From: Chiloscyllium plagiosum
Lineage: Eukaryota
Assembly: GCF_004010195.1 (NCBI RefSeq)
Contig: NC_057750.1
Location: 16,431,241-16,495,240, forward strand
Direction of reading: 5' to 3'
Length of the DNA stretch: 64,000 nt
Positions 9,301 through 63,693 of this stretch are shown piece after piece. The notes below the pieces were generated by a model. It made no database searches. It had not been told where the DNA came from and was given only the letters and a program-made list of their open reading frames with translations. The position numbers and the translations under genes are program-made. The stretch's first letter is position 1; the number at the start of each line of letters is the position of its first letter.

Positions 9301-12300
9301 TCTCCCTTTTCCCCACCGTGTTTTTCTCTTAATTAAATAAACATCTAATACTGTCTTTGACTCAAACTCTGAGTCTACCCCCACCACAATCCTATACAAT
9401 ATGTTCAACACCACAACTACTGGCTGTGTGAAAATGTTTTCTCTCGTCTCATACTTGCTTTCCCTAACTTACTCTGTCCAGACCCCTTATGATTTTTAAA
9501 CATCTATCAAATCTCCTTTTAGACACCTCTCCGCAGCAAACAATCTCAACTTCTCCAATCGCTCTTCACAACTGAAGTTTCTCAAGTCTAGAACTATTCT
9601 CATAAACTTCTGCACTTCCTTCTATATGTTTACATCCTTCCTGTATGTGGTACTCACAAATGTTCACAATACCCCAACTGAGGTCTAACCAGTGTCTTAT
9701 ACAATTCATTCTCTGGATCATAAATCCAGTTTACAAATCAACCTAAGCATTAAGTCACCCTAGTCTTGTTGGAAGACATGATATATCCTCCTTAAAGCTG
9801 TACAGGTTTTAACAGTGCCCTTCATACTTCACATTATTCTTCACCAGTGATGGTGTATTTCCAATTTTTAAGAAAAATGTTTCTTTATCGTACTGCCATG
9901 TTCCCTAAACTGGTTAGATATTGCTTTAATTTTTTAATAGTTCTAAAATAATGTTGTTTATTTTGCTTTCAGGTGTCGTATTGGTTGGCAGGGCCGTTTC
10001 TGCGATCAGTGTATTCATTACCCAGGTTGTCTTCATGGCACATGCCAACAGCCTTGGCAGTGCAATTGCCAGGAGGGCTGGGGTGGCCTCTTCTGCAACC
10101 AGGATCTCAACTACTGCACCAACCACAAGCCGTGCAAGAATGGAGCCACGTGTACCAACACTGGTCAAGGCAGCTACACCTGCACCTGCAAACCTGGTTT
10201 CGGTGGGACCAACTGTGAGACTGAAGTCAATGAGTGTGAGAGCAATCCTTGTAAAAATGGAGGGAGCTGCACGGTATGTGTCCATTGAAAGAGTTCTCAC
10301 TCTCTCTGGTTCAGTGTTCAATCTTCCCCCATAATTAATTCCTTTGATTTGTTTTTTATCCCCCCTTCAGTTCTGTTAATTCTCCCTAATATGCTGTGAT
10401 GTTGTTTGAAAACACACCCTCATTGTCACTTTGCTGTTCACGGAAGCTTGCTTTCTGCAAATTAGCTGCCACATTTGTCTACATTACTACAATGACTAGA
10501 TTCCCACTTCATTTTGCTGTGAAGTGTTATGAGCTATTCTGAGGTTCTGAAAGCTTATGGAAATGCAAGTGTACCTTTCCTTTTGCTATGACCACATCTG
10601 ATATAATTCCTTACTAGGCATGCAATAGTTCAGTATTTGACTCCCTTTTCTCTAGTACTGGACTCCCACAGTTTGCAACTGATCTCAGTGCAAGTCTAGT
10701 TCTGGGTTTCCACTAAGCATAAGTCATGAAGGGTCTCTTGAAGACACATTGAGGTTTTGGTTAGTTAAGGTCAGGGAAAGTCTAACTTTAACCTTCAACA
10801 ATTCAGACTTGAGATTGAAGCTGGATAGTGATACCGTTGTCATCCACACCCCTGGTAGAATGAGGGCAACCTTGGCCATGGTCATCTTGGCTCAATCACT
10901 GTTTTCTGAAAATAGGGGTGTGGATGTCAGATTAGGTTGCATCAAACTGTTCATGTAGTCAAACCTCACCAAGGTGTTAAGAGTTTGATTGTCACCTGTG
11001 GAACTGAACATGTGCTTGCAGGAAGTGAAACGAAACTTCATATTCTATGTATGTCTTTACATATATAGAAGCAAAGATGCTTCCATATATCCAGGTTTAG
11101 AAGCAAAGATGCAATGGCACATCTTTTAAAAAAACAAATGGCTCACAGTAACTTCATATATCCTAGTGAGAAAGAAGGATTCGAAGAAAAGGATAAGCTA
11201 TGGTTGACCATGGAAGTTAAGGTTATGATCAAATTGAAAGACAATATATGTAATGTGGCAAAGAGTAGTGGTAAACCACAAGTTTGGGAAAGATTACCAA
11301 AAAAAGAGAGAAGATAATCTTTGGTGGGCGGCACGGTGGCACAGTGGTTAGCACTGCTGCCTCACAGCGGCAGAGACCCGGGTTCAATTCCCGACTCGGG
11401 TGTGGAGTTTGCACATTCTCCCCGTGACTGCGTGGGTTTCCTCCGGGTGCTCCGGTTTCCTCCCACAATCCAAAGATGTGCAGGTCAGGTGAATTGGCCA
11501 TGCTAAATTGCCCGTAGTGTTAGGTAAAGGGGTAAATGTAGGGGAATGAGTGGGTTGCGCTTCGGCGGGTCGGTGTGGACTTGTTGGGCCGAAGGGCCTG
11601 TTTCCACACTGTAAGTAATGTAATGTAATGTAATATGTAGCTTGGCTTTTGCCACTCTGGCTGAAATCAGGCAACTCAGCATATCAGAGCTCAAACTCAA
11701 ACCTTGGGCTTTCTGATTGACATATTAATGACCACAAGTTTCACAGGAAGCCAAAGCCTTTTTTCTCCTCTTGAAATGCAATTTGGTTGACTGATTGGCA
11801 ATCCTGGTTTGCCCACCAACTCCCAGATGAGATCAGAAGATAAAGTCAATTACCTTATAAAATAAATGAACTGTTATCAAGTTAAAAAGCAAATTATTTC
11901 TTTATTTCTGGCAAGTTATTTTAGTTTGACAAAATCTACATTTCTTGTGTCCACATTCTCCAGTGAAATTTTTTCGTTAGGCGTCAGGAAGATCAATAAC
12001 TCGACCTCCACCTTCATCACTGATTCCATCCCCTTTCTGGCCTCTGCTTCTCTTGGAATTCACTTCTCTGAAGTTAAAAACCACACAACACTAGGTTACA
12101 GTCCAACAGGTTTATTTGGAAGCACGAGCTGTCGGAGCGCTGCTCCTTCATCAGGTGGTTGTGGAGAATAAGATCATAAGACACAGAATTTATAGCAAAA
12201 GTTTACAGTGTGATGTAACTGAAATTATATATTGAAAAAGACCTGGATAGTTTGTTAGGTCTGTCATCTTTTAAAATGAACATGTTGGTTTCAGTTCGTT

Positions 12301-15300
12301 CATATGTAAATCGTAAAACCTTTTTTTGAAGTTACATTCTCAAGTGAACTTTAACAATTGGTTTCATGTTGGCCCAGATAATGCATTGAAGGTGTGAGGT
12401 GCCCTGCGTGAGAATGTCTGTTCCCCCTTTGTTCACACTGATTCTAATCTAAAAAATGGATTTACAGAATCTTTGATCTTATACTCCACAACCACCTGAT
12501 GAAGGAGCAGTGCTCCAAAAGCTAGTGCTTCCAAATAAACCTGTTGGATTATAACCTGGTGTTGTGATTTTAAAATTTGTACACCCCAGTCCAACACCGG
12601 CATCTCCAAATCGTCATTCTCTGAAAGATACAATTCTTTACTGGTATCTTATTTGACGCCTAGCTGAGCTACTGATCCCATATTTCCTTTTGTGATCCTG
12701 ACTCAACTATTCCAGTGTATTTCTAAACTTCGGCTCATCCAAATCTCTGCTGCTTCTGTTCACTTTGAACCTTAAAAATGATAGAACAGGATACTAGGAA
12801 AATCTAGAACCAGCAGAGAAAAAACAAGAGATTCAGTCTCAGTGCACGGGTTATAAAATTTAAGGAAGAGCTTCCGAAAATAATGAAAAAAAGGTTAATT
12901 GAATTGTAGGAGATTAGAACACAAGAGAATAGAATGATTTGGAGGTGCTAGTGTTGGATTGGGATGGACAAAGTTAAAAGTCACACAACACCAGATTATG
13001 GTCCAACAGGTATATTCAGAAGCACTAGCTTTCGGAGCGCTGCTCCTTCATCAGGTGGTTCTGGAGTATAAGATCATAAGAGGATAGAATTAATGCTTCC
13101 ACAATGCAAAGCCGTGGATGCACCACAACTAGAGAAGTGACAGCATTCTGGGCACCATGCTTGCAAGGGTATTTACACCTTTGGAGGGAATGCAGTGTAG
13201 ATTCACTACAATGATATTTGAACTTCAGAAGTTAATTTGAGGTGAAATTACACAAACAAGTTAGTGCCCTCTGAAATGTAGAAGATTCAAGTGTGATTTT
13301 ATTGCAATGTCAAGAAGAACAGAGATTAGGAACCATTTATGTTGCTTGGAAAGGCTAGGACTAGAGGACATGATTGGAAAAATTTATGTAGAACCACACC
13401 TATCAGAAATAAAGTCAGGAAACCTTTTTGCATACAATGATGATAGATATTTGGAACTCTCTTCCACAAATGCCAATTAACTCTTGATCAATTATTAATT
13501 TTAAATCAAACAGTGATAGTTGTGTTAATTAAAGAAATGAAGAGATAAGTGGCAAAAGTAAGTATGAAATCAAGTGACAGATCAGCCTTGATCTCTTTGA
13601 ACTGGGCAGAACAGGGTTTAGGGGCTCGTTAGCCAACCCCTTATTCCTCTTACTCTTCCTTTTACCAAGTTCCACATTACCCTATGCTCACTGATCTACA
13701 TTTCACCTGGTTAAATGACACATGCAATTGAAAGCTGTGTCATTCACAAATTCAAATCCATTCACCACTCCCTTGGTTCACAGAACCACCTCCAGTCCTG
13801 CAACCCTTTAGGAACACCTGACTCTGGCCTTTTGTGCATGTCTCACTTTCTTTGCCTCACTATTGCTGGCTATGGCATTTTGTAAGCTCTAGAATTGCTT
13901 CCCTAAACTTCTCCACCTCTTGTTCGTCTATGTAAGTTGCTCCTTGAGACCAACCAAAGTTCTGGTCATTCCTCTTGTTGTCCCCTTCTTTGGTTTGGTG
14001 CCTTTTTATATCTGTTCTTGTGACTGAGAAGCACATTGGGACCTCCTCTGCATTAAGGACACTATACAGGTATAAGGTGCCATTATTAATGAGGTTTGCA
14101 TATACACATGAGCGTGTGATTTAGAGCAAGAGCAGGTCATTTAGCTCCTTAAGCCTGCGCTGCCATTCGATAAAGTCATGGCTGATCTGACTGTGACTGT
14201 AACTCCATAACCTGAATACCTGTTGCCCATCCCTAATTGCCATTAAGAAGGTAGTGGTGAATCTTGAGTATGACCAAATTATTTTTGAGCTGAAAATGTG
14301 TTGCTGGAAAAGCGCAGCAGGTCAGGCAGCATCCAGGGAACAGGAGAATCGACGTTTCGGGCATAAGCCCTTCTTCAAATTATTTTTGAGGCCATTTTAG
14401 AGGGCAGTTAAGAGTTGCACATTGGTGTGGGTTCACCTGTGGGCCAGACAGAGTTAGGCAGATTTCATTCCCTAAAGGACATAAATAAGCCTGTGTGACA
14501 GTCCATAGTGTTACGGTCATCATTACTGATCCTAGCTTTTGGTTGCATTACTGAATTTGGTTCTCAAGATGTTGTGGTGGGATTTCAGATGGTTGTATTT
14601 CTAGTCCATGCCTATGGACTAGTATCCAGAGACATGGACTAGAAATTATTAATCCAAAAACACAAACACTATATTACCAAATTGCAGAACAACAGTAAAA
14701 TATAAAATAACAACACTGAAAGACACAACTAACTAAATTTCGTGAAAAATCAACTTTGCTTTGATCCACAATCACCATTTGTGATATTTTTTCAATTATT
14801 TTCTCACCTTTACTCTTGGCCTCTCCTCCACTAGGGTCTTTAAGAACTGAGCTTGGTGTTGAGATATAGGAACAGCTACAATCACATTGAATAGTAAAGA
14901 AGGCTCAATGGGCCACTCCTACTCCTATTTTCTTCGTTTCTACATAATAATGTAAAATGAATATGAAATCATTGTTGATCGTTGTTAAAAACCATGTGTT
15001 TCACTAATGACCTTTCGGGAAGGACCCTTATCTGGTCTGGCTGACATGTGACTGCGATGTGGTTGACTCCTAAGTGCCCTTTGAAATGGTCTGGCAAGCC
15101 ATTCAGATGCAGGGGAATAAATGCTAACCTCGCCAGCTATGCCGATATCACATGAGAGAATAAAGTAAAAGTATAGAAATGGATCAGTCCAACTGTGGAG
15201 GTTGCTCTGCCTTTAAATCAGATCCTAAGAGATCTGAATCTCTATTTCACTTCCCCTCCTTAACTCCATATCTGCCAATATTTTTATGCAACAAAAATCT

Positions 15301-18300
15301 ATCAATCTCATTCTTGAAAGTTCCAATTGGCTTCCTTTGAAGATATCCAATACCTCCCACATAAATAAAAGTGCTTCCTAACTTTGGGTTTGAATGGCAT
15401 TGTTCTAATTTTAAGACTGCTATAAGTGCTTTTGATTTTCCCACGAGAAAATTTAGATTCCACAAGCTCTGCACCTTGAGCCAGGAAAGTGAATGTTGGC
15501 AAGTACCTAGCCTAAGGGGTGAGAAACATCCTAAGCTTGTTCCTGTGCTTACTCACAATGTCCAGCACAGGTTATCACACAGTGATTGGGCAATGGGATC
15601 TCCTTATGTCTAGTGATGTTGGTGATGGTTAGCAACCCAGGAGTTGTGACCTCAAACCTGACACTGACTTCAGGGAAAAACTATTGGATTGTCACATGAA
15701 TCTATTTGATTGACCATTGGCTTTCAAGGAAGGGAACTGACTATTACCACCTGGTCTGGTATTCAGTTAACTTCACACTTACTAGAGGCTTTACAACTGC
15801 CCAAGTTGTACAACTGATGGATTAACTGGGGAATATGTAATACATGTGACCATTCCAGCATTTAACAGCATAAAAAATGACTTCAGGATAGAACAAAGGT
15901 TGAATCTCTGAGGCATTATATCTTGTTACTGTACTTATCTTACTCTTTCCATCTAAAAACTGTCAATTCCCATCATTCATATTCCCCCTATCTCCAGTTA
16001 CCTTCTGGGGGACTCGCTTTCTGGAAGAGGAGTAGAAAGAGGGTCACTGAATATTTGTAAGGCAGGGATTAATGAATCCTTGACAAATGAGGGTGTGAAA
16101 GGCTTATCAGCATCAGCAGGAATGCAGAGTTGAGGCCATAGTCTGATGAGTCATGATCCTATTGAATGGCAGTACAGGCTGGAGGGGCTGAATGGTTTAC
16201 TCCTGCTTTTGATTTTGCTCAAAATCCTCATCCATCCCTTTGCATCTCTGGATTCATCAATTCCAGTGCAGTCTTTGCCTCTCTACCTCCACTCTTACCC
16301 TTCCATTTATCCAAAACTGTGCTACCCAATCTTGCACCATACCATGCTTGACCCAAATTCAATGTTCCCATTAATCTATATCTTTACCTGTGTTCCACTG
16401 ATATAAATTTAACATCTTCTTGAATGTTTCTAAGATGTCATTCCCCTTTCTCTATCTATGTGACCATCTTGATGCTCAAGCCCCCTGCTATTTCTGCTTC
16501 TTTCCTAACTATTGGTATACTGCCTCTCCCTTTATGCTTCTAATAACATGTCATGCTCTCAGCTGGTTAATGTTACTGCTCCCTTACCTTTTCTCAGCTT
16601 TCTCTTCTGCTTCACGACCCAAGCCTAGGAAGACCCTCAGGAGAACAGTCTGCCACTCACCTAATTTATCACCATTCCTTACAGAGAAGTTTTTTCAGCT
16701 GCACCTTAGGTCAGGAACTCCGTGGCAGTAGAAGATCAGACTTGTGCTCACACATTGATGCACTGAAGTACTGATCAACGAATTAAACTTCCAGAAGTAA
16801 ACATGAATTTTAATGTTTTAAATCTTTTATGGAATTGGGTGTTGCTGGATGGTTCAGCATTTATTGCTATCTCTAATTAGGGCAACAGGTGGTGGGTTTG
16901 GAATGTGCTGTTAAAGGAGATTGATGAGTTTGTCTTGTAGATGTCCACAAACCTACCACTGTGCCCAATAGTGCAGAAAGTGAATGTTTAAGGTAACAGA
17001 TGGGATGCTGAATAAGTGGAATGCCTAGTCGTGGATAATGCTTAGATTCTTGAATTTTGTTTGAGTTATTAGATTAGATTAGATTAGATATTACAGTGTG
17101 GAAACAGGCCCTTCGGCCCAACAAGTCCACACCGACCCGCCGAAGCGAAACCCACCCATACATTTACCCCTTACCTAACACTACAGGCAATTTAGTATGG
17201 CCAATTCACCTGACCCTGCACATCTTTTGGATGGTGGGAGGAAACCGGAGCACCCGGAGGAAACCCACGCAGACACGGGGAGAACGTGCAAACTCCACAC
17301 AGTCAGTCGCCTGAGGCGGGAATTGAACCCGGGTCTCTGGCGCTGTGAGACAGCAGTGCTAACCACTTTGCCACCGTGCCGCCCAGTTATATTCATCCTG
17401 TCAAGTGGGAAGTATTCTATTACACTCCCAACTTGAGAACATCTTTGGGGAGGTAGGAGGTGAGTCACTTACTGCAGAATTCAAAGCCAGTGACCTGCTG
17501 TTATTTCCATAGTAACTATATAGCTGGTTCAGTTAACCTTCTGGTCAGTGGTGATGCCTAGGATGTTGATGGACGGTTCACCTATGATCATGCAATTGAA
17601 TGTCAAGGAATGCTGATTACAACACCGTCCCTTTTTAATTATTCACTTGTGGGATGTGGGCATCACCAGCTGTGCCTGTATTTATTGCCCATCACTAACT
17701 GCCCCTGAGAAGGCGGTGGTGAGCTGCTGTCCTGACCTGCTGCAATCCATGTCTTTTGGAGATGGTCATTGCCTGACACTATGGGCTTGGTCTTGCTGCC
17801 TGTGGGGACACTGCTTCAATGTCAGAGAGTAGAAGGCCGTTGATGAATTGCTGAAGATGGTTAGCTGGAACACAATCCTGACGAACTCCTGCAGAGATGC
17901 CCTTCATTTCCCTTTGTGCTAGGAATAGTGCCAACCAGTGGACAGCTCCCCCCAGCTTTTTCTAGGGCCTTTAGATACCATACTTGGTCAAATACTGTCT
18001 TGATGTCAAGACAGTCACTCTTGGATCACCTCTGGAGTTCAGTTCTTTTGTCCATATTTGGACTAAGAACATAATGAGGTCAGAGGGTCTCTTCTGGTAC
18101 AGTGATAATGTACATTATTTCTGAGCCAGGAGGCACGAGTCCCCAGTCCTGTCAGCTCTGGTGATTTAAAATAACACTTCTGAACAGGTAGATTAAAAAC
18201 ATCAGTAGTGAGGTCAGGTACCTACAGAAACCAAATCTAGCATTAGGTTATTGCTGAGGAAGAGCTGCTTGATAGCACTGTAGACAACACCTAGACTGAG

Positions 18301-21300
18301 AATAGACTTCTGGGCTCTTGTCGGATTTGTCCTGCATTTTGTGTACAGGACATGCCTGAGCAATTTTCCATATTTTCAGGTTAATCAGTATTGCAGCTGT
18401 ACTGGAACAACTCAGCTATGGGCATGATTAGTTCTGTAGCATAACTCCTCAGTACTACATTATGTGGAATGGATCAGATTTATTGAAGTCTGGCTTCAAT
18501 AATGGTGGGCAACTCCAGACGGATCATCCACTTGGCATGTTTGGCTGAAAGGGATGCAAACATTTCAGCCCTATCTTTCAAACTTGTACATGGGGCACCT
18601 CTAACATTGAATGTGGCAAAATTACAGGGTGCTGATTTAATCCATTGGTTATGGTGTTCATCACATGCTACTTCCACTATTTAGCACATACATAATCCTG
18701 TGTTATACCTTCACTCAGTTGATTTCCTGGCTTGGAGTGAGATATATTCCAGGCTATCAAGTTACAGATTGAATACATTCTGCTGCTGCTGATGGCCCAC
18801 AGTATCTCATAGATGCCTAGTATTTAGATGCTAGATCTGCTTGAAAACTATCCAATTTGGTTTGGTGAGAGTAGCTTACAACATAATGTAGAAGGTCCTC
18901 AGAAATGAAATGGAATCGAACTTTGTCTCCTGCCATTACTTTCATGGACAGATGCACCTGCAATGGATGAATTGGTAAATACAAGTAGGTTTTCTCCTCA
19001 GTTTCCTCACTATCTGCCACAGGCCCATTCTAGCAGCTATGTCCATCAGGAGCTGGCTGGTTTGGTTGGTAGTGTTGCTACTAAGCAACCTTGGTGATGA
19101 AGAATGATGTTCCTTCACCCTGAGTGCATTCTGTGACCTTATCACTGTCAGTTAATCTTCAAAATGATGTTCAACATGAAGAAGTAGTGATACATGGAGG
19201 ATGGTTTCCTTGCCCAAGCCAGCCTGATGCCATTGCTGTGGAGTCAATGTTGTGGACACCCAAAGAAATTCCTCCAGACTGCATACCACTGTATCATCAT
19301 CTCTTGTGGGATAGAGCAAACCCAAAGATGGTGATGTCTGGGTCAGCATTGTTGATAGTGAGGTGGTCATACCATACATGCAGAAAGGGAATGGGTGACC
19401 ATTATGAGATTATAATAGTCAGGTGGTTGTTTTGACTGTGTTGCAGATATTTATGCTTCTGAGAGTATGACTGTTGGGCTGTTGCTTGACTAGTCTGTAG
19501 GACAACTCTAGGAGGTTAGGCTTAGGTCCTCAAATATATAGTATACTGTATTTGATCCATGTTAACAATCTCATCTTGGGTGCACAGAACACAATTTCAC
19601 AATCTGCTGATGACACAAAATAAGGAAGCATTTTGAACTATGAAGAGGTTGATGAGGTGATTTAAACAAACTGGCAGAATTGGCAAAGGTGTGGCCGATA
19701 CAATTTAAATATGTGCAGTATGTAGGAAGAACAATGAAATAACATAAAATAAAGGATACAATTCTAAAAAGTGGGATCTTGGGAGTATATTGTACCAATC
19801 ATTGAAGAAAGCAAGTCAGACTGAGAAAGCAGTTAACAAAGACTTACAAATAGAGACAGTGTTTGTAAAAGTAAATAATTTTTGATGAACCTGTACTGAG
19901 CATTGTCTCAGCCTCAACTGTGGTATTATGTCTAGTTTTTGGCACTGACTTTTGGATGGTTGGAAAGGCATTATCGAGTGTGCAAAAAGATGGTTCCAGT
20001 GATGAGGGAATTCGGTTACTTTGATAGATTGGAGAAGTTGAGGTTTTTGTTCTTTCTGGAAAAGGTGGAGAGGAGATTTAACAGGTATTCAAAATCATCA
20101 GGTGGACAGAAGAGAGAAATACTGAAGGATTCAAGGCTAATGGCAAAAAAAGCCATCAGTGACAGGTAATTCTTTTTCCACAGTGTATTGATAATGTGTG
20201 ATACTGAGAATGTGGTGGGGGCAGATTCAGTTACAGCTTTTAAAAGATTGTTACCTTAATAGAAACAGGGCTCTGATGAAAAGGTAACGTCAGCAGCTAA
20301 TCTCTTGTAGAGAATGGACTTAAGTTGAGTGGCATCCTAGTTTACTGTAAGCATTCTATGATTCTATACTGTTAATGAGGAGGATGTTGCAGGGTTGACT
20401 AGACATGGTGCGCCTTTGTCATGTCTGAATGTGATGTTTTGGTTTTTTGATGATTCACATGGTTTTATTACAATGATATAATGTTGTAGCAATTAGATAT
20501 GGCAGTGTCTTGCTAGGTCATTTCAGAGGGCATGTTAAAGGGCAAAGATTAGGTAAGCATGGCAGATTTCCTTCCACAATGAACCAGGTTCATTTTTGCG
20601 ACAGGAAGGGCTGGAGAAACTAAGCAGGCCCAGCAGCCTCAGGGGAGAGAAAGAGTTACAGTTAAATCTAAATGACTCTTCTTTAGAACTGAAGGAAATT
20701 GGAAATCTGATGGGTTTCATACATTTTCATCTCTCTCTCTCTTTCGTTCCATTAACTGAGATGTTAGCTCTCTTTTCTCTGTCCGCCATTGCTACCAGAC
20801 CTGCCAAATCTCGACCACACTTTGATTTTATTTCAGGTTTCCTGCACCTGCACTATTTTCTTTCAATTTTTACAATAGGTTAGTTATAAATTCATTCATT
20901 GATAATAGGCTTCGATTTCAGATTCAGTTAATTAAATGAATTTAAATTTCCCAACTCCCTGGTGAGATTTGAACTTGTATCTTAGGTTTCTGATTTACAT
21001 ACCGCAAACAACCATTTTGCTACCTTTCTTAGTTACACTCCAGTTTGACATCCTCTGCTATTGTAGAGGTTTCAAGACTAATTTTGGAGACCCTACTTTT
21101 GATCTGGGAATGGTCACTTAATTCAGCAGTGACTCAACTATTAAGTTCTGTGTGGCTTAGTAAAATGGTTTGTGTGTTTATTAATCAAAACATCAGACTT
21201 AATTGTTCGATGTCTAATTCATTGAGATTTGTAAATCATAAGAAAAAATTCTTGCTCACTCTCCTCATGCAAACAAAAATATCAAGGGCAGCTTGTGTTC

Positions 21301-32039: not shown

Positions 32040-32545
32040 TAATTAAATCTGATAAAAGGTAGGGAGGAGGGACTTGGGGGAGGGGCGTCGGAAATGCGAT
32101 AGGTGGAAAGAGGTTAAGGTGAGGGTGATAGATCAGACTGGGGTGGGGGCGGAGAGGTCAGGAAGAAGATTGCAGGTTAGGAAGGCGGTGCTGAGTTCGA
32201 TGGATTTGACTGAGACAAGGTGGGAGGAGGGGAAATGAGGAAACTGGTGAAATCCGGGTTCATCCCTTGTGGTTGGAGGGTTCCTAGGCGGAAGATGAGG
32301 CGCTCTTCCTCCAACCGTCGTGTTGTTGTGGTCTGGCGATGTACACTATGCTACTTTCTCCCCACCCCCCCCCCCCTCTAGCTTATCTCTCCACGCTTCA
32401 GGCTCTCTGCCTTTATTCCTGATGAGGGCTTTTGCCCGAAAATTCGATTTTACTGCTCCTCAGATGCTGCCTGAACTGCTGTGCTCTTCCAGCACCACTA
32501 ATCCAAAATCTGGTTTCCAGCATCTGCAGTCATTGTTTTTACCTT
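32040..32545. mobile_element. PLE fragment with inversion (GIY-YIG C-terminus on - strand, pLTR/hammerhead on + strand)
   Basis: The minus strand of about 32230-32340 reads RLEEERLIFRLGTLQPQGMN; the plus strand 32341-32545 carries the family A tail. Confidence 0.75.
32419..32447 (+). ncRNA. Hammerhead motif variant in the pLTR of a PLE fragment
   Basis: CUGAUGA-GGGC uuuu GCCC-GAAA-AU-UC-GA. Confidence 0.55.
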
Positions 32546-35500: not shown

Positions 35501-35549
35501 TCAAAAGCTGCAGAGAGAAGGAAATGAAAGGATAGCATACCACAGTCAT

Positions 35550-35640
35550 TCCTGATGAAGGGCTCCTGCCCAAAACGTCCATTTTCCTGCTCCTCAGATG
35601 GTGCCTGACCTGCTGTGCTTTTCCAGCACCACTCTAATCT
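35550..35640 (+). mobile_element. Family A PLE-derived short insert starting at the CUGAUGA core
   Basis: cctgatgaagggctcctgcccaaaacgtc...; GAAA mutated to AAAA. Confidence 0.65.
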
Positions 35641-37035: not shown

Positions 37036-39120
37036 AGTTAGAGACAAAAAAATACTGCAGATACTGGAAACCAAAGTAGACAAACAGGAGGCTCAAAGAA
37101 CACTGCAAGACAGACAGCATTAAGAGGTGAAGAAGTCAACGTTTTGGGTATAACTCTTCTTCAGGACTGGGGGGTGGGTGTAGGGGGAGTTGCAGATAAA
37201 GGGGTGGGGGGTGCAGGGTGGTGAGTGAACACAGGTAGAGGGTACAGCCTGGTTGGTCGATGGGAGGAATGAATCCAGTTGGTAGCTGGAAGGAAGGGTC
37301 GATCAGAGGAATGGAAGGGAGGGGAAGGGACTGGGAAGGGAGTCATGGGACGGGATAGGAGGTTATTTGGGATGGGATAGTGGCACAGTGGTTAGCGCTG
37401 CAGCCTCACTGCACCAGAGATCCGGGTTTGATGCCTGCCTCAGCCAACTGTCTGTGTGAAGCTTACACATTCTCCCCGTGTCTGCGTGGGTTTCCTCTGG
37501 CTGCTCTGGTTTCCTCCTACAATCCAAAGATATGCAGGTTAGGTGAATTGACCATGCTAAATTGTCCCATAGTGTTAGATGCATTAGTCAGGGAAAAATG
37601 TGGAGAAATAAGGGAATCGGTCTGGGTGGGTTACTCTTCGGAGAGTCAGTGTAGACTTGTTGGGCTGAAGGGCCTGTTTCCACACTAGTGATTCTGAGTT
37701 CTAAGTTATTTGAAATTGGAGAACTCAATGTTGAGTCCTCTGGGCTGGAGGCTGCCCAGGGGGAGGATGAGGTGTTGTTCCTCCAATTTGCAATCTGATA
37801 CGGTATGGCACTGGACAAGGCCAAGGATGGTCATGTCGGAAAGAGAGTGGGAAGGGGAATTAAAATGGGCGATGACTGGGAGGTCCACTTCATCGGGTTT
37901 ATGCCCGAAATGTCGACTCTCCTGCTCCTCGGATGCTGCCTGACCGTCTGTGCTTTTCCAGCTCTTCGACTCTGATCTCCAGCATTTGCAGTCCTCACTT
38001 TTTCCTGTAGGTTTGGTCGTCCTGATGTAGAGAAGACCACATCGGGAGCACTGGATGCAGTAAACTAGATTGTAAGCGTGGCAGGTGGACCTCCGTTTCA
38101 CCTGGAAGGGCTGTTTGGGGTCCTGGATGTAGGTGAGGGGAGTGGTGTACCGGCAGGTTATGCATCTTTTGCGGTCGCAGGGGAAGGTATGTGGAGGTTT
38201 GGTGGGGTTGGTGAGGAGGGTGGCACAAACCAAGGACTGGCAAAGGGAACGGTCCTTGCGGAAGTCAGAGAGGGGTGGGGAGGGGAAGATATTCTTGGTG
38301 GTGGGGTTTAATTGGAGTTGGCGGAAGTGTTTAAGGATGATACATTGGATGTGGAGACTGGTGGGGGGGTAGGGAGGACATGGGGTGGTAGGTGAGGACA
38401 AGGGGACCCTGTCTTTATTGTGTTTAGCGGGGGGGAGGGTTTAGAGCAATGGAGCGGAGAATGGAGGAAGCAGAGCAGAGCGCTGTCTGGATGACAGAGG
38501 GAGAAAAAGCACATTTTTCAAAATAGGTGGAAATCTGGGGTGCTTGGGTGTGGAATGTCTCTTTGTCCGAGCAGATGCAGCAGAGGCAGAGGAATTGGGA
38601 GAACGGGATGGAGTTCTTGCAGGATACTTGGGTGGGAGGGGTGTAGTCCAGATAATTGTAAGAGTCTGTGGGTTTATAGTAAACGTCCGTCTGGAGATTG
38701 TCACTGGAGATGGAAATGGAGAAGTCAGGGGAGGGAGGTGTCAGGGATGGACCAAGTGAATTTGAGGGCAGGTGGAAGTTGTGGGCGAAGTTAATGAACT
38801 GCTCCAGTTCAGCCTGGGTGTAGGATGCTCTCCTTCCTCACCCATCCATCGCCACTATACACCGAACCCCTCCAATTCTCCCTCTGCCTCACCACCTCAT
38901 ACCCCCGCACCCCTTCCCACACCCCCACCCCACTCCCCAGCTCAGCCTCCTCCCAATCTTCTTTCTCTCCCACACCCACTTCTCCCCACCACATCCAGCC
39001 ATCACCAACCAGGTCGTACACTCTACTTGTGTTCACCTATTCCTATCTCACCACCCACGCTCCCCCGATCTGCAGCTCCCCTTGCACTTTGGATTCTAGC
39101 ATCTGCAGCTTTATTGTCTC
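37036..39120 (-). mobile_element. Penelope-like retroelement (5'-truncated, decayed RT C-terminus plus GIY-YIG endonuclease) with inverted pLTR copy
   Basis: ORF 37706-38401 has NLVYCIQCSRCGLLYI...HFNSPSHS...LEEQHLILPLGSLQPRGLN; 38830-39120 is an inverted copy of the 3' end; TSD tttgttatt(t/g)taacag at 37020-37035 and 39121-39136. Confidence 0.85.
37370..37704 (+). mobile_element. HE1-like SINE (older) inserted into the PLE at its stop codon
   Basis: Same family; TSD gttatttg (37362-37369 and 37705-37712). Confidence 0.8.
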
Positions 39121-39247
39121 TTTGTTATTGTAACAGCTGGTAAAACATAGCACAGTGCAAATGCCTGCAGGGAGAAGGGAACAGGAAAGAAACAGGAAAA
39201 CAATCATTGTTAGGAGATAGCATCATGTACCAACCTTTAATGAAACA

Positions 39248-39463
39248 CAGGGAAAGTGAAGACTGCAGATGCTGGAGATCAGTCAAAGAGTGCGGTGCTG
39301 GAAAAGCACAGCCAGTCAGGCAGCATCCGAGGAGCAGGAGAATCGATGTTTTGAGCATAAGCCCTTCATCAGGAGATGAAGGGCTCAGGTTTGAAACGTT
39401 GATTCTCCTGCTCCTCAGATGCTGCCTGACCGGCTGTGGTTTTCCAGCATTGCACTCTTCGAC
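39248..39463. mobile_element. Family A fold-back insert
   Basis: Inverted arms meet at ttcatcaggagatgaa; TSD taatgaaaca (39238-39247 and 39464-39473). Confidence 0.75.
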
Positions 39464-42153: not shown

Positions 42154-42395
42154 GTGAGGACTGGAGATCAGAATTGAAGAGTGTAGTGCTGGAAAAACAC
42201 AGCCAGTCAGGCAGCATCCTAGGAGCAGGAGAATCCATATTTCGGGCATAAGCCCTTCATCAAAATCAAAACATCGATTCTCCTGCTCCTTATAGCTCGT
42301 TCCTATGAAGGGCTTATGCCCGAAACATTGATTCTCCTGCTCCTTGGATGCTGCTTGACCGGCTGTACTTTTCCAGCAGCACATTCTTCAACTAA
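42154..42395. mobile_element. Family A fold-back insert with an extra partial unit
   Basis: Inverted arms; TSD aatttagagaaa (42142-42153 and 42396-42407). Confidence 0.72.
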
Positions 42396-42880
42396 AATTT
42401 AGAGAAACACTGAATAAACTTATGTCACGCCAGTTTCATGCCTTGAATTACGTGACAGCAGTGAAAATCTGGGAATGGCGCAAAAAATGTTACCGAGCAG
42501 TGGTTGGGTCAGAAAGGTTGAGTTGTTGACCAGGGAGGAGTAAATATTTGTTTGCCAGTGCTGAGGGTTTTAAAATACTTGGGTTTGCCATAAAAAAAAG
42601 GCCCATTTTCATTTCACAGGCTGCACTCACATCAGCATGGAATAGAAAATTATCCCACCTATTGACAGAAAGAAATTGCACATGTTTAATAGGGCCTTGC
42701 AGTTGTCAAAACTGAGTCCAAGCTGACTTGATGGTCACAACTCCAAAATCCTGATCCGCAATCCCACTGGGGTCACAATCCACATTTTGGGAAGCCCTGT
42801 GTTAAATACTTGAAAAGGAAAAGTAGGCCAGGCTACATGGGAAGAACGGAACTAATTTGATTGTGCTTTCAAAGAGCCAG

Positions 42881-43087
42881 AAATGTGTTGCTGGAAAAGC
42901 GCAGCAGGTCAGGCATCATCCAGGGAACAGGAGAATCGACGTTTCGGGCATAAGCCCTTCCTGAAGAAGGGCTTATGCCCGGAACGTCGATTCTCCTGTT
43001 CCCTGGATGCTGCCTGACCTGCTGCGCTTTTCCAGCAACACATTTCCAGCTCTGATCTCCAGCATCTGCAGACCTCACATTCTCCTC
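42881..43087. mobile_element. Young family A fold-back insert, about 80-bp near-perfect inverted arms centred on the hammerhead core
   Basis: Arms 42881-42960 and 42966-43045; perfect 15-bp TSD ctttcaaagagccag (42866-42880 and 43088-43102). Confidence 0.85.
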
Positions 43088-46427: not shown

Positions 46428-47238
46428 ACAGGTTCATAGTTCCTTGAAAGTGGAGTCACAGATAGATAGGATAGTGAAGAAGGCGTTTAGCATACTTTCC
46501 TTTATTGGTCAGAGTATTAAGTATAGGAGTCTAGATTAGAATGGTGCTGGAAAAGCACAGCAGATCAGGCAGCATCCGAGGAGCAGGAAAATCGACGTTT
46601 CGGGCAAAAGCCCTTCATCAGGAATAGAGTATAGAAGTATTGAGTATAGGAGTCAAGAAGTCATATTGCAGCTGTACAGGCCATTGGTTAGACCACTTTT
46701 GAATATTGTGTAAATTCTAGTTTCCCTCCTATCGGAAGGACGTTGTGAAACTTGAAAGGGTTCAGAAAAGATTTACAAGGATGTTGCTAAGGTTGGAGGG
46801 TTTGAGCTATAGGAAGATGTATAGACTAGGACTGTTTTGCCTGGAGTGTCAGAGGCTGAGGGGTGACCTTATAGAGGTTTATAAAATCATGAGGGGCATG
46901 GATGGGATAAATGGACAGTCTTTTCCCTGGGGTGGGGGAGTTCAGAACTAGAGGGCATAGGTTTAGGGTGAGAGAGGAAAGATATAAAAGAGGCCTAAGG
47001 GGCAACTTTTTCACACAGAGGGTGGTATGTGTATGGAATGAGGTGCCAGAGGAAGTGGTGAAGGCTAGTACGACTGCAACATTTAAAAGGCATTTGGATG
47101 GGTATATGAATAGATAGGGTTTGGAGGGATATGGCCCAGGTGCTGGCATGTGGGACTGGATTGGGTTGGGATTTCTGGTCAGCATGGACAAGTTGGACCG
47201 AAGGGTCTGTTTCCATGCTGTATATCTCTATGACTCTA
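46428..47238 (+). mobile_element. CR1 3' fragment nested in an older minus-strand CR1 (about 45310-47410)
   Basis: Same subfamily as 40343-41275; itself interrupted by a hammerhead insert. Confidence 0.9.
46592..46622 (-). ncRNA. Minimal hammerhead motif (family A), intact core, in an insert within a CR1 RT fragment
   Basis: Minus strand C-CUGAUGA-A-GGGC uuuu GCCC-GAAA-CG-UC-GA; 19-bp near-perfect TSD at 46513-46531 and 46636-46654. Confidence 0.72.
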
Positions 47239-48823
47239 ATAAATTATTCAGTGACTACTTCCCTTTCCCTGAAGCCATGCTAATTCTGCTTGGTTAAATT
47301 ATGATTTTCTACATATTTTGCTATTACTTCCTTGAAACTTGATTCTAATACTTTTCCAACAATAGATGATAAGCTAATTGGCCAACAGTTAGCCACTTTT
47401 TGCCTTTCTCTTGCTGCATGACCGTAAGCATGTCTAAGTGATTTAGGGATGCACAGCATATCGTGTCCTTCATGACCTCAAGACTTCCCAAAGCACTCTT
47501 AGTCAACAAACTGCTGTTTTTTTTGGAGTGAAGTCACGGTTGTTAATCTGGGAAATAATTTGGACACAGCAAGATTCCTTGAAATAACAAATGATCAGAT
47601 TTTCTGCTCACCTGAAGAGATCTCAGTTCAGCAGTTCATCTGGGATGACCATGCCCCTGCTGCACTCCTCAGCTCCACCCTGGAATGTCCATCAGTCAGG
47701 CATTTTCTTCTGGCCTCTCCAAAACAGGGTCTTGAAAATCCAGAAGCGCAGGTGGAAGGCATGGTCCACAGCTGCTTGGAGAGTTGAAAGTTGGGTTTGG
47801 GAGGTGAAATGTTGAAATCTTCGTCAATTCCCAGAAGGACAAAGAACAGTAAAATATAACAAGGGGGAGAAAAACCCGAAGAACTGCGGGTGCTGAAAAT
47901 CAAAAAGAAAAAGAGATTGCTGGAAAAACTCAGCAAAAAGCAGAATTCATGCACTGATCTAGCTCGACTTGTATTCTTCAAAATGAAGCAACGGTATGTT
48001 CGTTTATGAAAACTACATTTTAATCTCCACCTGGACAATAAATTCAGGGATCTTGCCGCGCAACAAGTCCCCACCACGTGCGCCACAAGGGATAGCTTTA
48101 ATCTGTTTTTTGTTTTAAATGGCTCTTTATTTGGTTCATATTGAAGTGTTGTTTTTGTTTGTTTGGAAGGTAGAGTGTGGGCTGGGAGGAGCGCGCTGTT
48201 GTGGAGCTTCAGCCTCGGCCATGTTCCTCTCTGGGCGGGAAGACGGCCTCAGGCGGTTTTCAGAGAGAAGCCAAAAAAACACAAACAAAAACTCACACTT
48301 TGCTCGGTCCGGCCGCACTCCCTAATGCAGCAGAATGCCGCACTCGGAGCCTGTTGCTGACGCTCCAGCTGACAGATGTCTGTTTGATGGTCACAAAAGT
48401 CTCCGTGGGCTGTGTGTCCATCTGCCGAGGCCGATGGCGACGACGACAACATGAACGTGGCTTCCATCGGATCCCGGGCCTTGCAGACTCCCCGCCAGGC
48501 GTCAGGCTGAGGACAGGGCGGGGGAAGGGGCATCTGTTGGTTTGCATCCAACCTCTTTACCCCCCCCCCCTCACCCTTGAAAAAGTCACCAGCCCGAAAA
48601 CAGGCCATTCTTCTCGGTTCGTGTGTGTGTGGCGTCACGTTTGTCCCATCGAGGGTGAGGAAGGAAGGGGCCTGTGTTAAACAGAATGTCTTAACCTCCC
48701 CTGGGGTGGGGCAGTTGTGTCCCATTCTGTTACTGATGTGCGAAAGAGATCAACCACGGTGTCACAGAAACCCAGCGAAAGTAGGATTCCATTCCCTCAT
48801 CCTGAATTCACGTTATAGACAAC

Positions 48824-48855
48824 CTGATGAAGGAGCAGCGCTCCGAAAGCTAGTG
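48824..48855 (+). ncRNA. Minimal hammerhead motif (family B) in a 64-bp insert (48823-48886)
   Basis: CUGAUGA-A-GGAGCagcGCUCC-GAAA-GC-UA-GUG; flanked by the direct repeat TAGACAA (48816-48822 and 48887-48893). Confidence 0.72.
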
Positions 48856-50196
48856 CTTCCAATGAAACCTGTGTGATTTTTAACTTTAGACAAATTATAG
48901 ACTGTGAAATATTATGTAATGGGAAATGCAATTTCAATAAATCGCTAGAAACTAAAGAATTCTACTGCACATGTGCCCCTGATCAGCTTATAATACTCAT
49001 GAGTTGAAATTTATGGCTGAGACCCCTGCCTAAATTTTTTTAAAATGCCTCTGAACAACCCTGTTTAGATATCTCTGCTCCATCTATTCTGCAAAGCTTT
49101 CTCTTGCTGTTCCACAAATTGGCAGCTGTGCTCAGGAATTCTGGTCCTATACCTGTCCTCCTCTCAACTTCTCTCTAACTTTTGGAAGCTTCTTAAAATT
49201 CTTTGATCAAGCTTTTGGATACCTGCTCTAATATCTGTGTTAAATGCTGTTTGATTATGCTCTGTGAAGCTCTCTTGAAAGTCGCTACAATGTTAAGACG
49301 TGCTACATAAGTACAAATTGTTGAGTTCTTTTTCTGAGAATCTCATGAAAACTGGTTATGCAGTGTTTATCATATTGTTATTTGTAGGAGCTTGCTACAT
49401 GAAAATTGACTGCTGTGTTTCTTACTGAATGCGTTTCAAAATTTCTTTACTGGCTGTAAAATGCTTTGAAATGTTCTGAGTTAGAAACACTATCTAATAG
49501 TACAAGATTTTCTTGTTACTTCCAGGCAGTAGTCATTAGTATCTATTATTTTGCCCCACAGATCTACTATTGATGCTGTAATGCTTGGGACACCATTTCC
49601 TAAGTGCCTCAATTTTGTCTGTTCTCACCCTCCTCTTTGAAAGTCTCTCTCAAGACCAAGCTACATCAGTGCCCCCTTAAAATACCTTGGCATCAACTGG
49701 CATCTCCCAGGCATAAGATGAGAGCCTGAAAATATGCCTGCAGCCTGGTTCCAGTAAGTGAACATGGAGATGGAATTAACGCTGCAAAGGGATTGGAGAG
49801 GAGAGATTGGTGGTGAGAGAGGAAAAATAACAAGTGCAGTGGGTTAATGCTCACAAAAGTTTTGGTACAGACCAGGAAGATTCCAGGTTTACACTGAATG
49901 TTGATTAGGACAACATTGTCGCTGAACAAAGATTCCTGATCCTTATTCACTGAGTCAGAAAATGTCCAGCTGTGAAAAGTGAAGGAAGTTATTAGGTTCA
50001 ATTGTTGTTGAATTTTTCTAATTCTTACATGGAATGTGGGCTTGATTGGCAAGGTCAGCTTTTAATGCTTGTCCCTACTTGTCTTGACCTGAGCAGCTTG
50101 CTAGGCCATTACAGAGGACGGTTAAGAATCAACCAGATTAAAATTGGTCTGGAGCCTGGTAGGTCAAGTCAGGCAGCATCCAAGGAGCAGGAGAAC

Positions 50197-50226
50197 CGAC
50201 GTTTCGGGCATAAGCCCTTCTTCAGG
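50197..50226 (-). ncRNA. Minimal hammerhead motif (family A, CUGAAGA variant) in fold-back insert of about 50168-50345
   Basis: Minus strand CUGAAGA-A-GGGC uuau GCCC-GAAA-CG-UC. Confidence 0.65.
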
Positions 50227-52217
50227 AGGCTTATGCCCGAAACGTCGATTCTCCTGCTCCTTGGATGCTGCCTGACCTGCTGCGCTTTTCCAGCAACACA
50301 TTTTTCTGTTCTGATCTCCAGTATCTGCAGTCCTCACTTTCTCCTAGTCTGGTACGTCAGGCCAGATAGGGATTGCAGATTTCCTTTTGAACCAGGAGGG
50401 TTTTGTTTTAGCAATCAACAATAGTTTGATGTTCAGATTGAGACCAGTGGTCCTTCTAATTATCTTTACTGCTACTCTGTAGCAGCATCTTCCAAAACCA
50501 GAAGTTGACGCCAATTGCCGCTCACAGAACATAGGAGTGCTGCATGTACACAGCTGAGCAGCTTAGCGGGAAAGTTGATTGAAATTAGCTTTCAATTCAA
50601 TTTTAATTTTAATTAATTAAAATCAAATTTGTGGTGGAATTTGAACTAATGTTGTGACCATTAGCCTGGGCCTTTGGATATACTTTTGGTCTACCCAAGA
50701 TCTTATAGTTTAGATTCACAAATAAAACTAGAGTTTTAGACAGCAGAGAGGATCAGAACTGAAGACAATAAGTAGACCTGCCCTCTCTGCACAGTGGCCT
50801 TTTGCTTTGAAATTAATTTTCTTAGTTTCCTCCAAATCTAGGACACTTGGCATTTAGCCTCTCCATCCTGACGTAGCAAGGAAGGAAGTTGGGCCCCGAT
50901 GCTGCAGTACTAGTGCTTCAGAAACAGTTAGCAAACACTAGTGCCTGCTCAGTTAACCTTCCACTCCAAGGGTAGTGTGTTTCACTCAAATAATTACAAT
51001 TAGATTCTGTAATCTCACTTCACTTAGTTTCCCTTTCTCAATATTTATACTGTTTACATTTTATGAATCTGGAGGATCTGAGGGGGCAGTTTTTGGCATT
51101 GCTTTCTCATTGGTGGATGTATCCTAAGTGGACACCAATTATTTTGAACTACAACAAGCTGCATTCATGTAACACCTTGAATGTCGAACAGTGTCCCAAA
51201 GTATTTCACATGTGCAAACTGCTAAGGTCTAACACACAAGGAGATATTAGGACAGGTAACAAAATGCTTGGTAGGTTTTAAGAAGTGCCTTAAAGGAGGA
51301 GGGTGGAAGGTTTTAGGGAAAGGGGGTTTCAGAGCCTGGGGCCTGGGCAGCTGAAGGCATGGCCAGTAGTGATGGAAAGCAGATAAATGCATGGCTGAGG
51401 AGCTGTTGTATGGGAAAAGGATTCTCATTTTTGGATCATTGGAATCTCTTTTGGGGAAGAAGTAACCTGTACAAGAAGGACGGATTGCACCTAAATTGGA
51501 AGGAGACTAATATACTCAGAATAGTAAGGATATGGAATGCTTTGCCTGCATCGGTAGTAGAATAGTATGGCAGGGCGGCGCAACATTGAGGGCTGAAGGG
51601 CCTGTACTGCGCTGTAATGTTCTACCTTCTATGTTCTAAGAATGGAAATTGGAGAAGGCCCAAGAGGCCAGAATTGGGAACAGACCAATCAAGTGGAGGT
51701 ATTTACAAATATGAGGAAAGATGATTCCATGGAGGAATTTTAAAACAAAAGATTAAACGTAGAATTGGAGTCACTGATGAACCAGCAGCCAGTCTAAGTC
51801 AGCAAACAGGATATTTATACGAGAATGAAACTTAGGGTGTGAATTAGGTGACTGCCAACTTTGCATGAGCTCTGGCTTTGTAAAGTTAGGTCAACGCATG
51901 GGTACATTTCAACAGCAGAGACAGGATTCAGAGAAAGGCAATGATGCAGTATGGGAGTAGGCAAGTGTTAATGACAGACAGAATACAGTGCTGATTTGCC
52001 AACAATCCACTTAGGGACAAGCAGTTTCAATGAAGTTTCAGACACTGTAAACATCTTTGCTCAATAAGGGTCAGATTAAGTTTCAGAGCCCTAACTAATG
52101 ATCTGTATTAGTAATAATTGACATTAATTGACAAATAGGATGATTGATTGTCATCTAAATACCAAATTAAAAATCACACAACGCCAGGTTATAGTCCAAC
52201 AGGTTTAATTGGAAGCA

Positions 52218-52252
52218 CACTAGCTTTCAGAGCATCGCTCCTTCATCAGGTG
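52218..52252 (-). ncRNA. Minimal hammerhead motif (family B) in fold-back insert of about 52165-52378
   Basis: Minus strand CAC-CUGAUGA-A-GGAGC gau GCUCU-GAAA-GC-UA-GUG (one G-U pair). Confidence 0.68.
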
Positions 52253-53154
52253 ATAATTCGATAGGCGACGCTCCGAAAGCTAGTGTGTTTCCAATTAAAC
52301 CTGTTGGACTATAACCTGGTATTGTGTGATTTTTAACTTTGTACACTCCAGTCTAACACCAGTATCTCCAAATCATGACATCAAAATACCAGTCTACCTG
52401 CATCTACTGAGCTTCTTACCCAAATGTAAAAAAATCTGACCTGCTTTGAAAGTTTTATTTTCAGGAAAACATTTTATTCAAAACAGTGTAGTTGCCTTTA
52501 AACAGTCATAATTTTCCAGCCCAAGGCTAATCACGGAACTATGGAATCATAACACACGTTGGGAGGCCATTCAGCCCATCATGCCTGTGCTGTCTTTTTG
52601 GAAGATCTGTCCTTTTGCCCAGCACTTACCCCTAAAGCTCTCCAGAGTCCTCCCCCCCCCCCCCCCAAGTATTTATCTAATCCCGTTTGCAAGTTGTTAA
52701 TGAATTTGCTTCTATCACTATTTCAGACTGCATATTCCAGATCTTAAAAATTCAAAAATATTCTCCTACTTTTCATTACCTTACTTCTTCATCATAGTTC
52801 TGTGTTACTGACCATCCTGTCAATTGAAACAATTTTCCCTAGTTACTTGAAAACTCTGATTTCTGTTATGATTTATTTTGACAATGCTTTGAGAATATTT
52901 CTGATATCTCTCAAGTTTTCAGTAAGCTGCCTCAGGTCATTGCTCATTAATTTATAAATGCAGCAAACATGCTGGGTTTCTTTGGGAACATTAAGGGATG
53001 TGTATACAGTGTACACTTATTGTTTATTGTCATTCAGTGACTCCAGATGATAAATAGCCAGAGGATATGTACAGCAGTATAGCAATCTAACAGTAGATAC
53101 ATTTTCAGAACCTGAAAGGAATTGGTAGGGTGGATACTGAAAGGATGTTTCTAC

Positions 53155-58270: not shown

Positions 58271-58374
58271 AGAATTGTAGAGTATAAGCCACTCAGCCTG
58301 TTCAAACTGCTTTAAGGGAAGTACCAAGTTACTGTGAAGTAATGCTGGATGGTAATGCGATTCTTTTGAGCCTG

Positions 58375-61780: not shown

Positions 61781-61799
61781 AAATGGGTATATCCACAAA

Positions 61800-62258: not shown

Positions 62259-62259
62259 T

Positions 62260-62830: not shown

Positions 62831-62849
62831 TCAGAGGTGTTATGAAGCA

Positions 62850-63480
62850 ATTCTGGTGTTCAGGATTCTCTTAAGGTTAACATGCAGGTTAACTTGGGCA
62901 GTTAGGAAGACAATGCAATGTTAGCATTCATTTCAAGAGTGCTAGAATACAAGAGCAGAGATATACTGCTGAGGCTGTATAATGTTCTGGTCAGACCAAT
63001 TTGGAATATTGTGAGCAGGCTTGAGCTCCACATCCAAGGAAGGAGATGCTGGTGTTGGCGAGAATCAGAGTAGGTTTGCAAGAATTCTCCCTGGGATGAC
63101 GGGCTTGTCATATGAGGAGTGGTTAAGGACTCTCGGTCTGTACTTGATAGAGTTTAGAAGGATGAGGGGGAAATCTGATTGAAACTTATAGAATACTGAG
63201 TGGCTGGATAGAGTGGGCCCGAGGGCACAGCCTCAGAGTGGAGCGTCAGCCACATTAGAACTGAGATGAGAAGGAATTTCTTCAGCCAGAGGATGGTTAA
63301 TCTGTAGACATCATTGCTGCAGAGGGCTGTAGAGGCCAGATCATTGAGTGTATTTAAGATAGAGACAGCTATGTTCTTGATTGGTAATGGAATCAAGGGT
63401 TATGGGGAGGAGGCAGGAGAATGGATTGAAAAAAGCACATCAGCCATTATTGATTGGGTTGAATTACCTAACACTGCTCA
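62850..63480 (+). mobile_element. Older CR1 subfamily 3' fragment
   Basis: LYNVLVRP.LEYC...RRMRG..IETY...RRNFFSQR. Confidence 0.8.
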
Positions 63481-63489
63481 TCCATCTTA

Positions 63490-63693
63490 TTTAAAAATCA
63501 CATGATGCTAGGTTATGGTCCAACAGGTTTATTTGAAAGCAATAGTTTTCGGAGCACTGCTCCTTCAAAGGCGACCTAATGAAGGAGCAGCACTACGAAA
63601 GCTAGTGCTTCCAAATAAACCTGTAGGACTATGACCTGGTGTTGTGTGATTTTTAATTTTGTCCACCCAAGTCCAACGCCAGCTCTTCCACAT
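63490..63693. mobile_element. Family B fold-back insert (decayed)
   Basis: Inverted arms meet near the core at about 63565-63580; degenerate TSD catc(c/t)atctta. Confidence 0.65.

Follow-up and report, generated by a model that had tools for sequence, protein, structure and literature searches.

Scattered minimal hammerhead motifs in a Chiloscyllium plagiosum locus as probable terminal-repeat ribozymes of two Penelope-like element families

Minimal hammerhead ribozymes were described in 2014 in the pseudo-long terminal repeats (pLTRs) of metazoan Penelope-like elements (PLEs), and RNA circles were proposed for them in the same paper (Cervera & de la Pena, PMC4209133). Cleavage of such hammerheads as dimers was reported by Lunse et al. 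(as told in the review PMC6765202). Here we analysed a stretch of 64,000 nucleotides of Chiloscyllium plagiosum (assembly GCF_004010195.1, contig NC_057750.1, positions 16,431,241 to 16,495,240), hereafter the window, which is part of a 3.56-Gb genome. An earlier inspection of its letters, the sequence-only reading, had noted about 15 scattered hammerhead-like loci in two families, A and B. Judging from sequence, these motifs are very probably minimal type I hammerheads in the pLTRs of two PLE families, and the scattered copies insertion products cut short at the 5' end, about 95-130 bp long and likely inert. Positions given as +n or -n are counted from C3 of the ribozyme core, and C3 coordinates carry the sign of the strand.

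The motifs have the features given in the accessible text of the 2014 paper: a type I core with an unpaired base between positions 9 and 10.1 and a G10.1-C11.1 pair, a palindromic 15.2-16.2 segment, a short helix I, mostly solo scattered copies, opposite-strand pairs, and several covarying families per genome (PMC4209133). Hence neither the motif class nor its extra base, palindrome, scattered solo copies or opposite-strand pairs is new. Helix II has 4-5 bp here and 7-8 bp in Schistosoma, and our loose search gave 200,245 matches against 4,000 in the coelacanth and 9,000 in Xenopus, by search methods that differ (PMC4209133). Sharks are not named in the accessible text of that paper. The finding as first stated is therefore the 2014 result in another genome. 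Its value lies in the scale, several hundred thousand insertion junctions of one element type, which bear on what PLE hammerheads do and on how PLEs are copied.

We searched for the motif with a family-independent descriptor, which demands the core, a helix II of at least 4 bp, a palindromic helix III and a helix I of at least 2 bp. The genome sample consisted of twelve 100-kb blocks at hand-picked round coordinates on 12 large contigs (1,170,943 non-N bases). The descriptor matched 42 times in this 1.17 Mb and never in the reversed sequence; without the palindrome filter there were 60 loci, 42 of them with a palindromic helix III. Exact family patterns matched the whole genome 79,576 times for A, 14,834 times for B and 364 times for an older subfamily, D, each with a reversed control of 0, and a loose core pattern yielded the 200,245 matches against 419 in reversed sequence. 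The motifs are not due to chance. When worn copies are included, the sample extrapolates to about 635,000 copies of A and 179,000 of B, i.e., one A per 5.6 kb and one B per 19.8 kb, in agreement with the proposed density of roughly one per 4-5 kb.

All 15 loci of the window are copies of families A or B, but only six pass the descriptor (C3 at 13054-, 32419+, 46621-, 48824+, 50225- and 52249-). The other nine have lost C3, G5, G12 or an A of GAAA, and the one at 37895 lacks the whole CUGANGA box. Helix II is as proposed in the loci, GGGC-N4-GCCC in A and GGAGC-N3-GCTCC in B. The proposed helix III tetramers, ACGU in A and AGCU in B, were likewise found, as was the extra A after A9 in both families (an extra base stands there in 42 of 42 descriptor matches of the sample); the locus at 32419 departs from both, with AAUU and no extra A. 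Helix I of family A, given as 2 bp, has in fact 4 bp (AUUC/GAUU, one of them U-U). Nor are all loci single motifs: at least six are head-to-head inverted pairs (12126/12496, 39350, 42240, 42940, 50197, 52218, 63545). A degenerate copy of a third subfamily at 37164-, behind a remnant of reverse transcriptase (RT) and GIY-YIG endonuclease, had escaped the list.

The two families do covary, as the sequence-only reading had held, and more subfamilies share the pattern: across A1, A1b, A2, A3, D and B, CUGANGA and GAAA-NN-UH are fixed while the helices change in step. Covariation was read by eye from natural copies; MAFFT does not register helices. Helix I occurs as AUUC/GAUU, AUUC/GAAU, AGUC/GACU, AGUU/AACU and CAC/GUG, with pair changes G-C/A-U, A-U/U-A and C-G/G-C/A-U. 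Helix II occurs as GGGC/GCCC, GGGU/ACCC, GGGUC/GACCC and GGAGC/GCUCC, its third pair changing between G-C and A-U, and helix III as ACGU in A, A3 and D and AGCU in B. The older subfamily D (L286-L297) combines GGGUC-N4-GACCC with the cut triplet GUU; by eye, most of its copies seem to begin about 5 nt before the core.

The origin of the motifs from Penelope-like elements, suspected from the start, is almost certain. In near-full-length elements of family B (L303/L322, L323) a hammerhead stands in both pLTRs, on either side of open reading frames (ORFs) for RT and GIY-YIG. L303/L322 has a 5' pLTR from -332 to +122, an ORF that opens with an ATG at +121 and spans about 2.7 kb, and a 3' pLTR that ends at +85; L323 resembles it (3' pLTR end at +85 to +90) and carries in addition an inverted long-tailed copy at its 5' end. 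The ORF matches RVT_1 (E 2e-07, above the Pfam cut-off), followed by a CX2-5CxxC linker and a GIY-YIG-like C-terminal end. The endonuclease was recognised by its motif, as Pfam gave no match on the endonuclease pieces, and a sequence search of PDB returned a single weak RT match (E 0.7). At L044, L049 and many of L122-L140, hammerheads of family A subfamilies stand immediately 3' of a same-strand GIY-YIG C-terminus; in many of 19 other loci it is subfamily A3 that comes after RT and endonuclease. Longer copies of the stubs continue directly into the 3' untranslated region (UTR) and the endonuclease of the autonomous element. Family A copies were also seen inside or beside family B copies (L004, L030, L183, L323), several near the T-rich short 3' end of B, which may reflect a target preference.

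This layout of RT, CX2-5CxxC linker and C-terminal GIY-YIG is that of the Neptune and Nematis PLEs (Craig et al. 2021, PMC8557442); the likeness concerns linker and domain layout and makes no choice between the two. The PLEs of that study also share 5' truncation and partial tandems, as well as an inverted 5' copy and a tail of 30-40 bp often present at one end only, and an optional tail is likewise found in rotifer PLEs (PMC3846280). Heavy 5' truncation is reported in the accessible text of PMC8557442, but no pile-up of ends at the ribozyme edge.

Such a pile-up is what the insertion junctions reveal here. To call ends without bias we anchored copies at +48..+66, outside the ribozyme, leaving out those that end before +66 or start after +48; this gave 209 copies of A and 59 of B (268 in total), with BLAST end calls accurate only to a few bases. 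The 5' end lies at -12..+9 in 112 of 209 A copies and 32 of 59 B copies (144 of 268 in all), while the next 30 nt upstream hold only nine and three ends, respectively. Per base, ends occur in this interval at a rate of 0.058 (A) and 0.062 (B), about 6-8 times that of the neighbouring intervals, and at 0.002-0.011 in every other interval, the cut site included. Ends defined by cleavage were rejected as the main class, as only 17/209 A and 5/59 B ends fall within 5 nt of the predicted cut site. Young copies found by exact downstream anchors behave alike: 20 of 30 A copies start at -6..+9, and B has its mode at -8. Two other accounts of these ends were considered. A subfamily missing from the references was rejected because in-register upstream sequence is common to none of 49 A and none of 12 B short unpaired copies. 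An origin of the ends at splice acceptors was rejected because the ends gather near -5 and clean solo copies abut the target duplication, whereas the AG/polypyrimidine sites of family A are found near -27 and -17.

At the other side there are two groups of 3' ends, at about +75-94 and +120-127. Within 250 bp we counted 47 head-to-head pairs of A and 17 of B among the 268 copies, against two and none tail-to-tail and two and none in direct orientation. A long and a short 3' end are combined in 57 of these 64 head-to-head pairs (binomial p 8e-11 against 0.5). Junctions often show microhomology of 1-4 nt. Target duplications of at least 8 bp were scored in 13 of 94 copies examined, of which about nine are clean, with starts near -5..0; some solo stubs are bounded by duplications of 8-16 bp. 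The "tiny mobile inserts" of the sequence-only reading are inserted pieces, as truncated insertion products, but not autonomous units. No ribozyme dimer can come from a head-to-head pair: one of its members is antisense, and the two together fold into a long hairpin (predicted at -103 to -156 kcal/mol, with the motif buried).

The two groups of 3' ends match the pair of internal RT start sites of the Poseidon element PAc of Anolis and the tail of 30-40 bp that these sites define (Frangieh et al. 2024, PMC11167929). There, both strands are cut and extended on an uncleaved RNA template, and no reads end at the cut site. The ORF start differs: it lies inside the ribozyme in Anolis PAc and at +121, the long 3' end, in family B. 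The coincidence of the long 3' end of family B with the start codon was seen at L303:406, in minus-strand orientation.

RNA reads came from one sample, a single-cell poly(A) run (X21) of which about 2% was read and which is labelled with a species in which the sequence is present. A further run (X22) had 0 reads on family A and was uninformative. Reads of family A fall on either strand (at the ribozyme, 455 vs 634), as would be the case for passengers of host transcripts. Their commonest 5' loose end is at -4 (131 reads), has mixed flanking letters and reflects genomic junctions. Reads of family B are strongly stranded (2,246 vs 416). Poly(A) follows +55, +57 and +58 (L017:1556, 1558 and 1559) in 705, 127 and 822 reads, which is 12-15 nt after AATAAA/ATTAAA, before a GU-rich stretch, about 28 nt past the predicted cut site and upstream of both inferred RT start sites. 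Priming from within A-runs of the genome was rejected: none of 170 genomic B copies is A-rich at this point, and the tail was therefore added to RNA. AWTAAA is present in 37 of 55 sampled family B copies. Family B, with about 179,000 copies, may supply many host poly(A) sites. Family B words are present in the runs of four organisms, and the family is therefore common to relatives.

These observations suggest a model of replication. The element RNA may begin immediately 5' of the ribozyme and end, in family B, immediately 3' of it, which we regard as a serious possibility rather than an expectation. An initiator-like YYANWYY with its A at -4 is found in A1, A2, A3 and D, and more weakly in B. 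As borrowed from Anolis, the element protein would nick both target strands and RT would start at two internal sites of an RNA that is not cleaved; help by protein in cleavage, and products that grow shorter along with the template's 5' end, would be borrowed as well (PMC11167929). As the two inferred RT start sites are both located past the poly(A) site, a processed RNA would have them only in its 5' copy. On an RNA that starts at helix I, RT would run off after about 95-130 nt and leave stubs, to be integrated singly or, as two cDNAs joined by microhomology, as head-to-head pairs. That the stubs are such run-off, strong-stop-like cDNAs we hold with similar reserve. For longer copies the template would have to be longer, be made by read-through or a strand jump, or be circularised by the ribozyme. 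Any action of the ribozyme would be as a dimer formed by both terminal copies of the element transcript, probably with help from protein.

The analogy that we propose is with the retroviral R-U5 segment and minus-strand strong-stop DNA: an RNA segment repeated at both ends, with a poly(A) site where it ends and RT starts only in the 5' copy. Unlike retroviral strong-stop synthesis, the process here would be target-primed, with no tRNA primer and no integrase, and the short cDNA would itself be integrated. Taken together, and with rather less assurance than its parts, the model is that of a long terminal repeat (LTR)-like RNA that starts at the first helix of the ribozyme, receives its poly(A) tail immediately past the ribozyme in the 3' repeat and has both RT starts only near its 5' end. 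The several hundred thousand stubs would be integrated strong-stop-like cDNAs, each head-to-head pair would be one two-strand insertion through both start sites, and copying of the whole element would need a strand jump or a ribozyme-made circle. Such an LTR-like layout, if true, gives the dimer hammerhead a defined job, and family B would have seeded about 100,000 usable poly(A) signals as a side effect.

Several points speak against the LTR-like model and the PLE anatomy on which it builds. In family A the initiator-like match coincides with helix I and with shared ancestry; in B it is weak. The double-hammerhead dimer is not the predicted minimum for two stubs (-9.3 vs -24.6 and -16.3 vs -25.5 kcal/mol). 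With a distant query from family B, same-strand RT or endonuclease matches accompany no more than 5 of 19 long A copies, the junction between 5' pLTR and ORF was not recovered for family A, seen only as 3' pLTR, and no stop-free ORF was found among the long copies translated, L303 itself having stops. The poly(A) reads of family B, from one sample, may be host transcripts that end in B copies. For family A no poly(A) was found among the few loose ends displayed, up to +99, and AWTAAA lies within +130 in only 5 of 30 copies. Read ends in X21 do not pile up at the cut or the start site, in a library that was built for neither and in which 30-nt products are lost. Penelope of Drosophila virilis starts about 120 nt upstream of the ribozyme (46-bp leader and 75-bp intron; PMC2377424), its intron ending at helix I (PMC4209133), and our 5' pile-up is about 20 nt wide.

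The last two points are also what an equal rival to run-off would lead one to expect. The elements would be the same and their transcript would start further upstream, and the 5' ends would gather because RT stalls or falls off past a protein-bound or dimerised ribozyme, or because short ATT/GAA words at the edge of the ribozyme help annealing to target DNA or to the partner cDNA; we find this account just as plausible. The peak is broad, junction microhomology of 1-4 nt is frequent, and the Anolis endonuclease prefers ATT (PMC11167929), which family A has at -4..-2. Yet family B peaks at the same place with most copies lacking ATT there, and the end rates at +10..+33 are at background. The latter counts against stalling, because RT stops induced by structure are expected on the 3' side of a helix.

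Other explanations depart further from the evidence. The short copies might form a non-autonomous mini-element, similar to a short interspersed nuclear element (SINE) or a retrozyme, with its own cycle through ribozyme-cut circles. Their very high copy number would suit it, and non-LTR retrozymes that derive from pLTRs, with pLTR-related type I hammerheads in non-coding units, have been reported, including in the sole chondrichthyan sampled (bioRxiv 10.64898/2026.07.22.740005). In the accessible text of that work, though, retrozymes are head-to-tail arrays, and the copies here are solo or head-to-head: direct pairs within 250 bp are as rare as given above, and Tandem Repeats Finder (TRF) detected no hammerhead array in the window. 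The ends do not match the cut site either, and longer copies run on into the autonomous element, which makes a mini-element unlikely. It is more improbable again that intact copies are kept as working host ribozymes, e.g., in the Delta-like introns of the window, for all that six of them pass the descriptor and copies are transcribed. Core columns diverge almost like flanks at non-CpG sites (4.6% vs a mean of 6.9% and median of 5.1% in A; 9.1% vs a mean of 12.2% and median of 8.7% in B), a full set of core letters remains in no more than 65 of 209 copies of A and 11 of 59 of B, and the predicted hairpins of head-to-head pairs bury the motif. Individual copies thus show no clear selection on the core. 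The core is fixed across subfamilies and diverges about as much as the flanks within families; hence, selection acted in the source elements and not in the inserts. The least credible option is a chance or non-catalytic repeat feature. Catalysis in these copies is predicted from sequence, and an Rfam scan of the window gave no match to hammerhead families at E up to 5, yielding solely hairpin-driven microRNA matches below the gathering score. The Rfam hammerhead models require a longer helix III, and the reversed controls (42 vs 0 and 200,245 vs 419) and the compensatory changes across subfamilies oppose this option.

The junctions show a template mostly uncut at the ribozyme, 5' ends that gather at its front edge, and paired insertions that use two RT starts asymmetrically; with the family B poly(A) site they lead to a specific, testable model of replication. 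The 5' pile-up at the ribozyme edge, the pairing count of 57/64 and the family B poly(A) site were not found in the open-access texts searched, the supplements of the 2014 and 2024 papers excluded. A search of the text of PMC11167929 gave no occurrence of "polyaden", "transcription start" or "circular".

Table 1. Hammerhead copies and Penelope-like remnants in the window.
Feature	Coordinates	Strand	Details
Family B head-to-head pair	12071..12612		minus copy -307..+83, GACA for GAAA; plus copy -20..+120, G12 lost; in intron of Delta-like gene
Family B copy -39..+121	12934..13094	-	intact minimal hammerhead 13023-13057; cut predicted after CUA (13026/13025); mutation in the poly(A) hexamer
Family A copy from +1	14287..14377	-	C3 lost; flanking 9-bp direct repeat 14275-14283 / 14376-14384, which may be a target duplication
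Family A	32051..32544		minus piece -300..-30 (end of GIY-YIG region and 3' UTR) head-to-head with plus copy -79..+126; hammerhead 32419 without extra A
Family A stub from about -6	35546..35633	+	G12 lost
Broken Penelope-like remnant	37046..38837	-	RT C-terminal part, Cys linker, GIY-YIG part, interrupted 3' UTR, degenerate subfamily A3 hammerhead (C3 at 37164); no Pfam match
Family A stub from +8	37895..38008	+	no CUGANGA box; antisense inside GIY-YIG remnant
Family A head-to-head pair	39247..39449		long-tailed minus copy, short plus copy; 10-bp flanking direct repeat
Family A copies head-to-head, worn	42156..42393		
Family A head-to-head pair	42873..43086		both ends about -3; short minus, long plus copy; hairpin of 155 nt predicted
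Family A stub from about -8	46542..46629	-	intact minimal hammerhead 46590-46625; predicted cut after GUC, between 46594 and 46593
Family B stub from -5	48819..48890	+	intact minimal hammerhead 48824; internal deletion 3' of ribozyme; 8-bp flanking direct repeat 48813-48820 / 48895-48902
Family A head-to-head pair	50165..50345		minus copy with intact core (C3 at 50225)
Family B head-to-head pair	52160..52378		core intact in the short-ended minus copy (C3 52249); long tail on the plus copy; flanking 8-bp direct repeat
Family B head-to-head pair	63491..63696		both cores damaged

The window also contains a gene for a Delta-type Notch ligand at 6448-23780 (+), with MNNL, DSL and EGF domains, whose neighbours are remnants of long interspersed nuclear elements. 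Its long intron hosts four of the hammerhead copies cited. One of them, the family B plus copy at 12476-12612 (+), lies in sense orientation and is a possible candidate for an intronic poly(A) site, because AATAAA and the GU-rich stretch are kept. A SINE-like repeat at 37380-37700 (-), presumably akin to HE1, interrupts the 3' UTR of the Penelope remnant. Tandem repeats of 30 bp were seen at 21642-21833, within the Delta-like intron.

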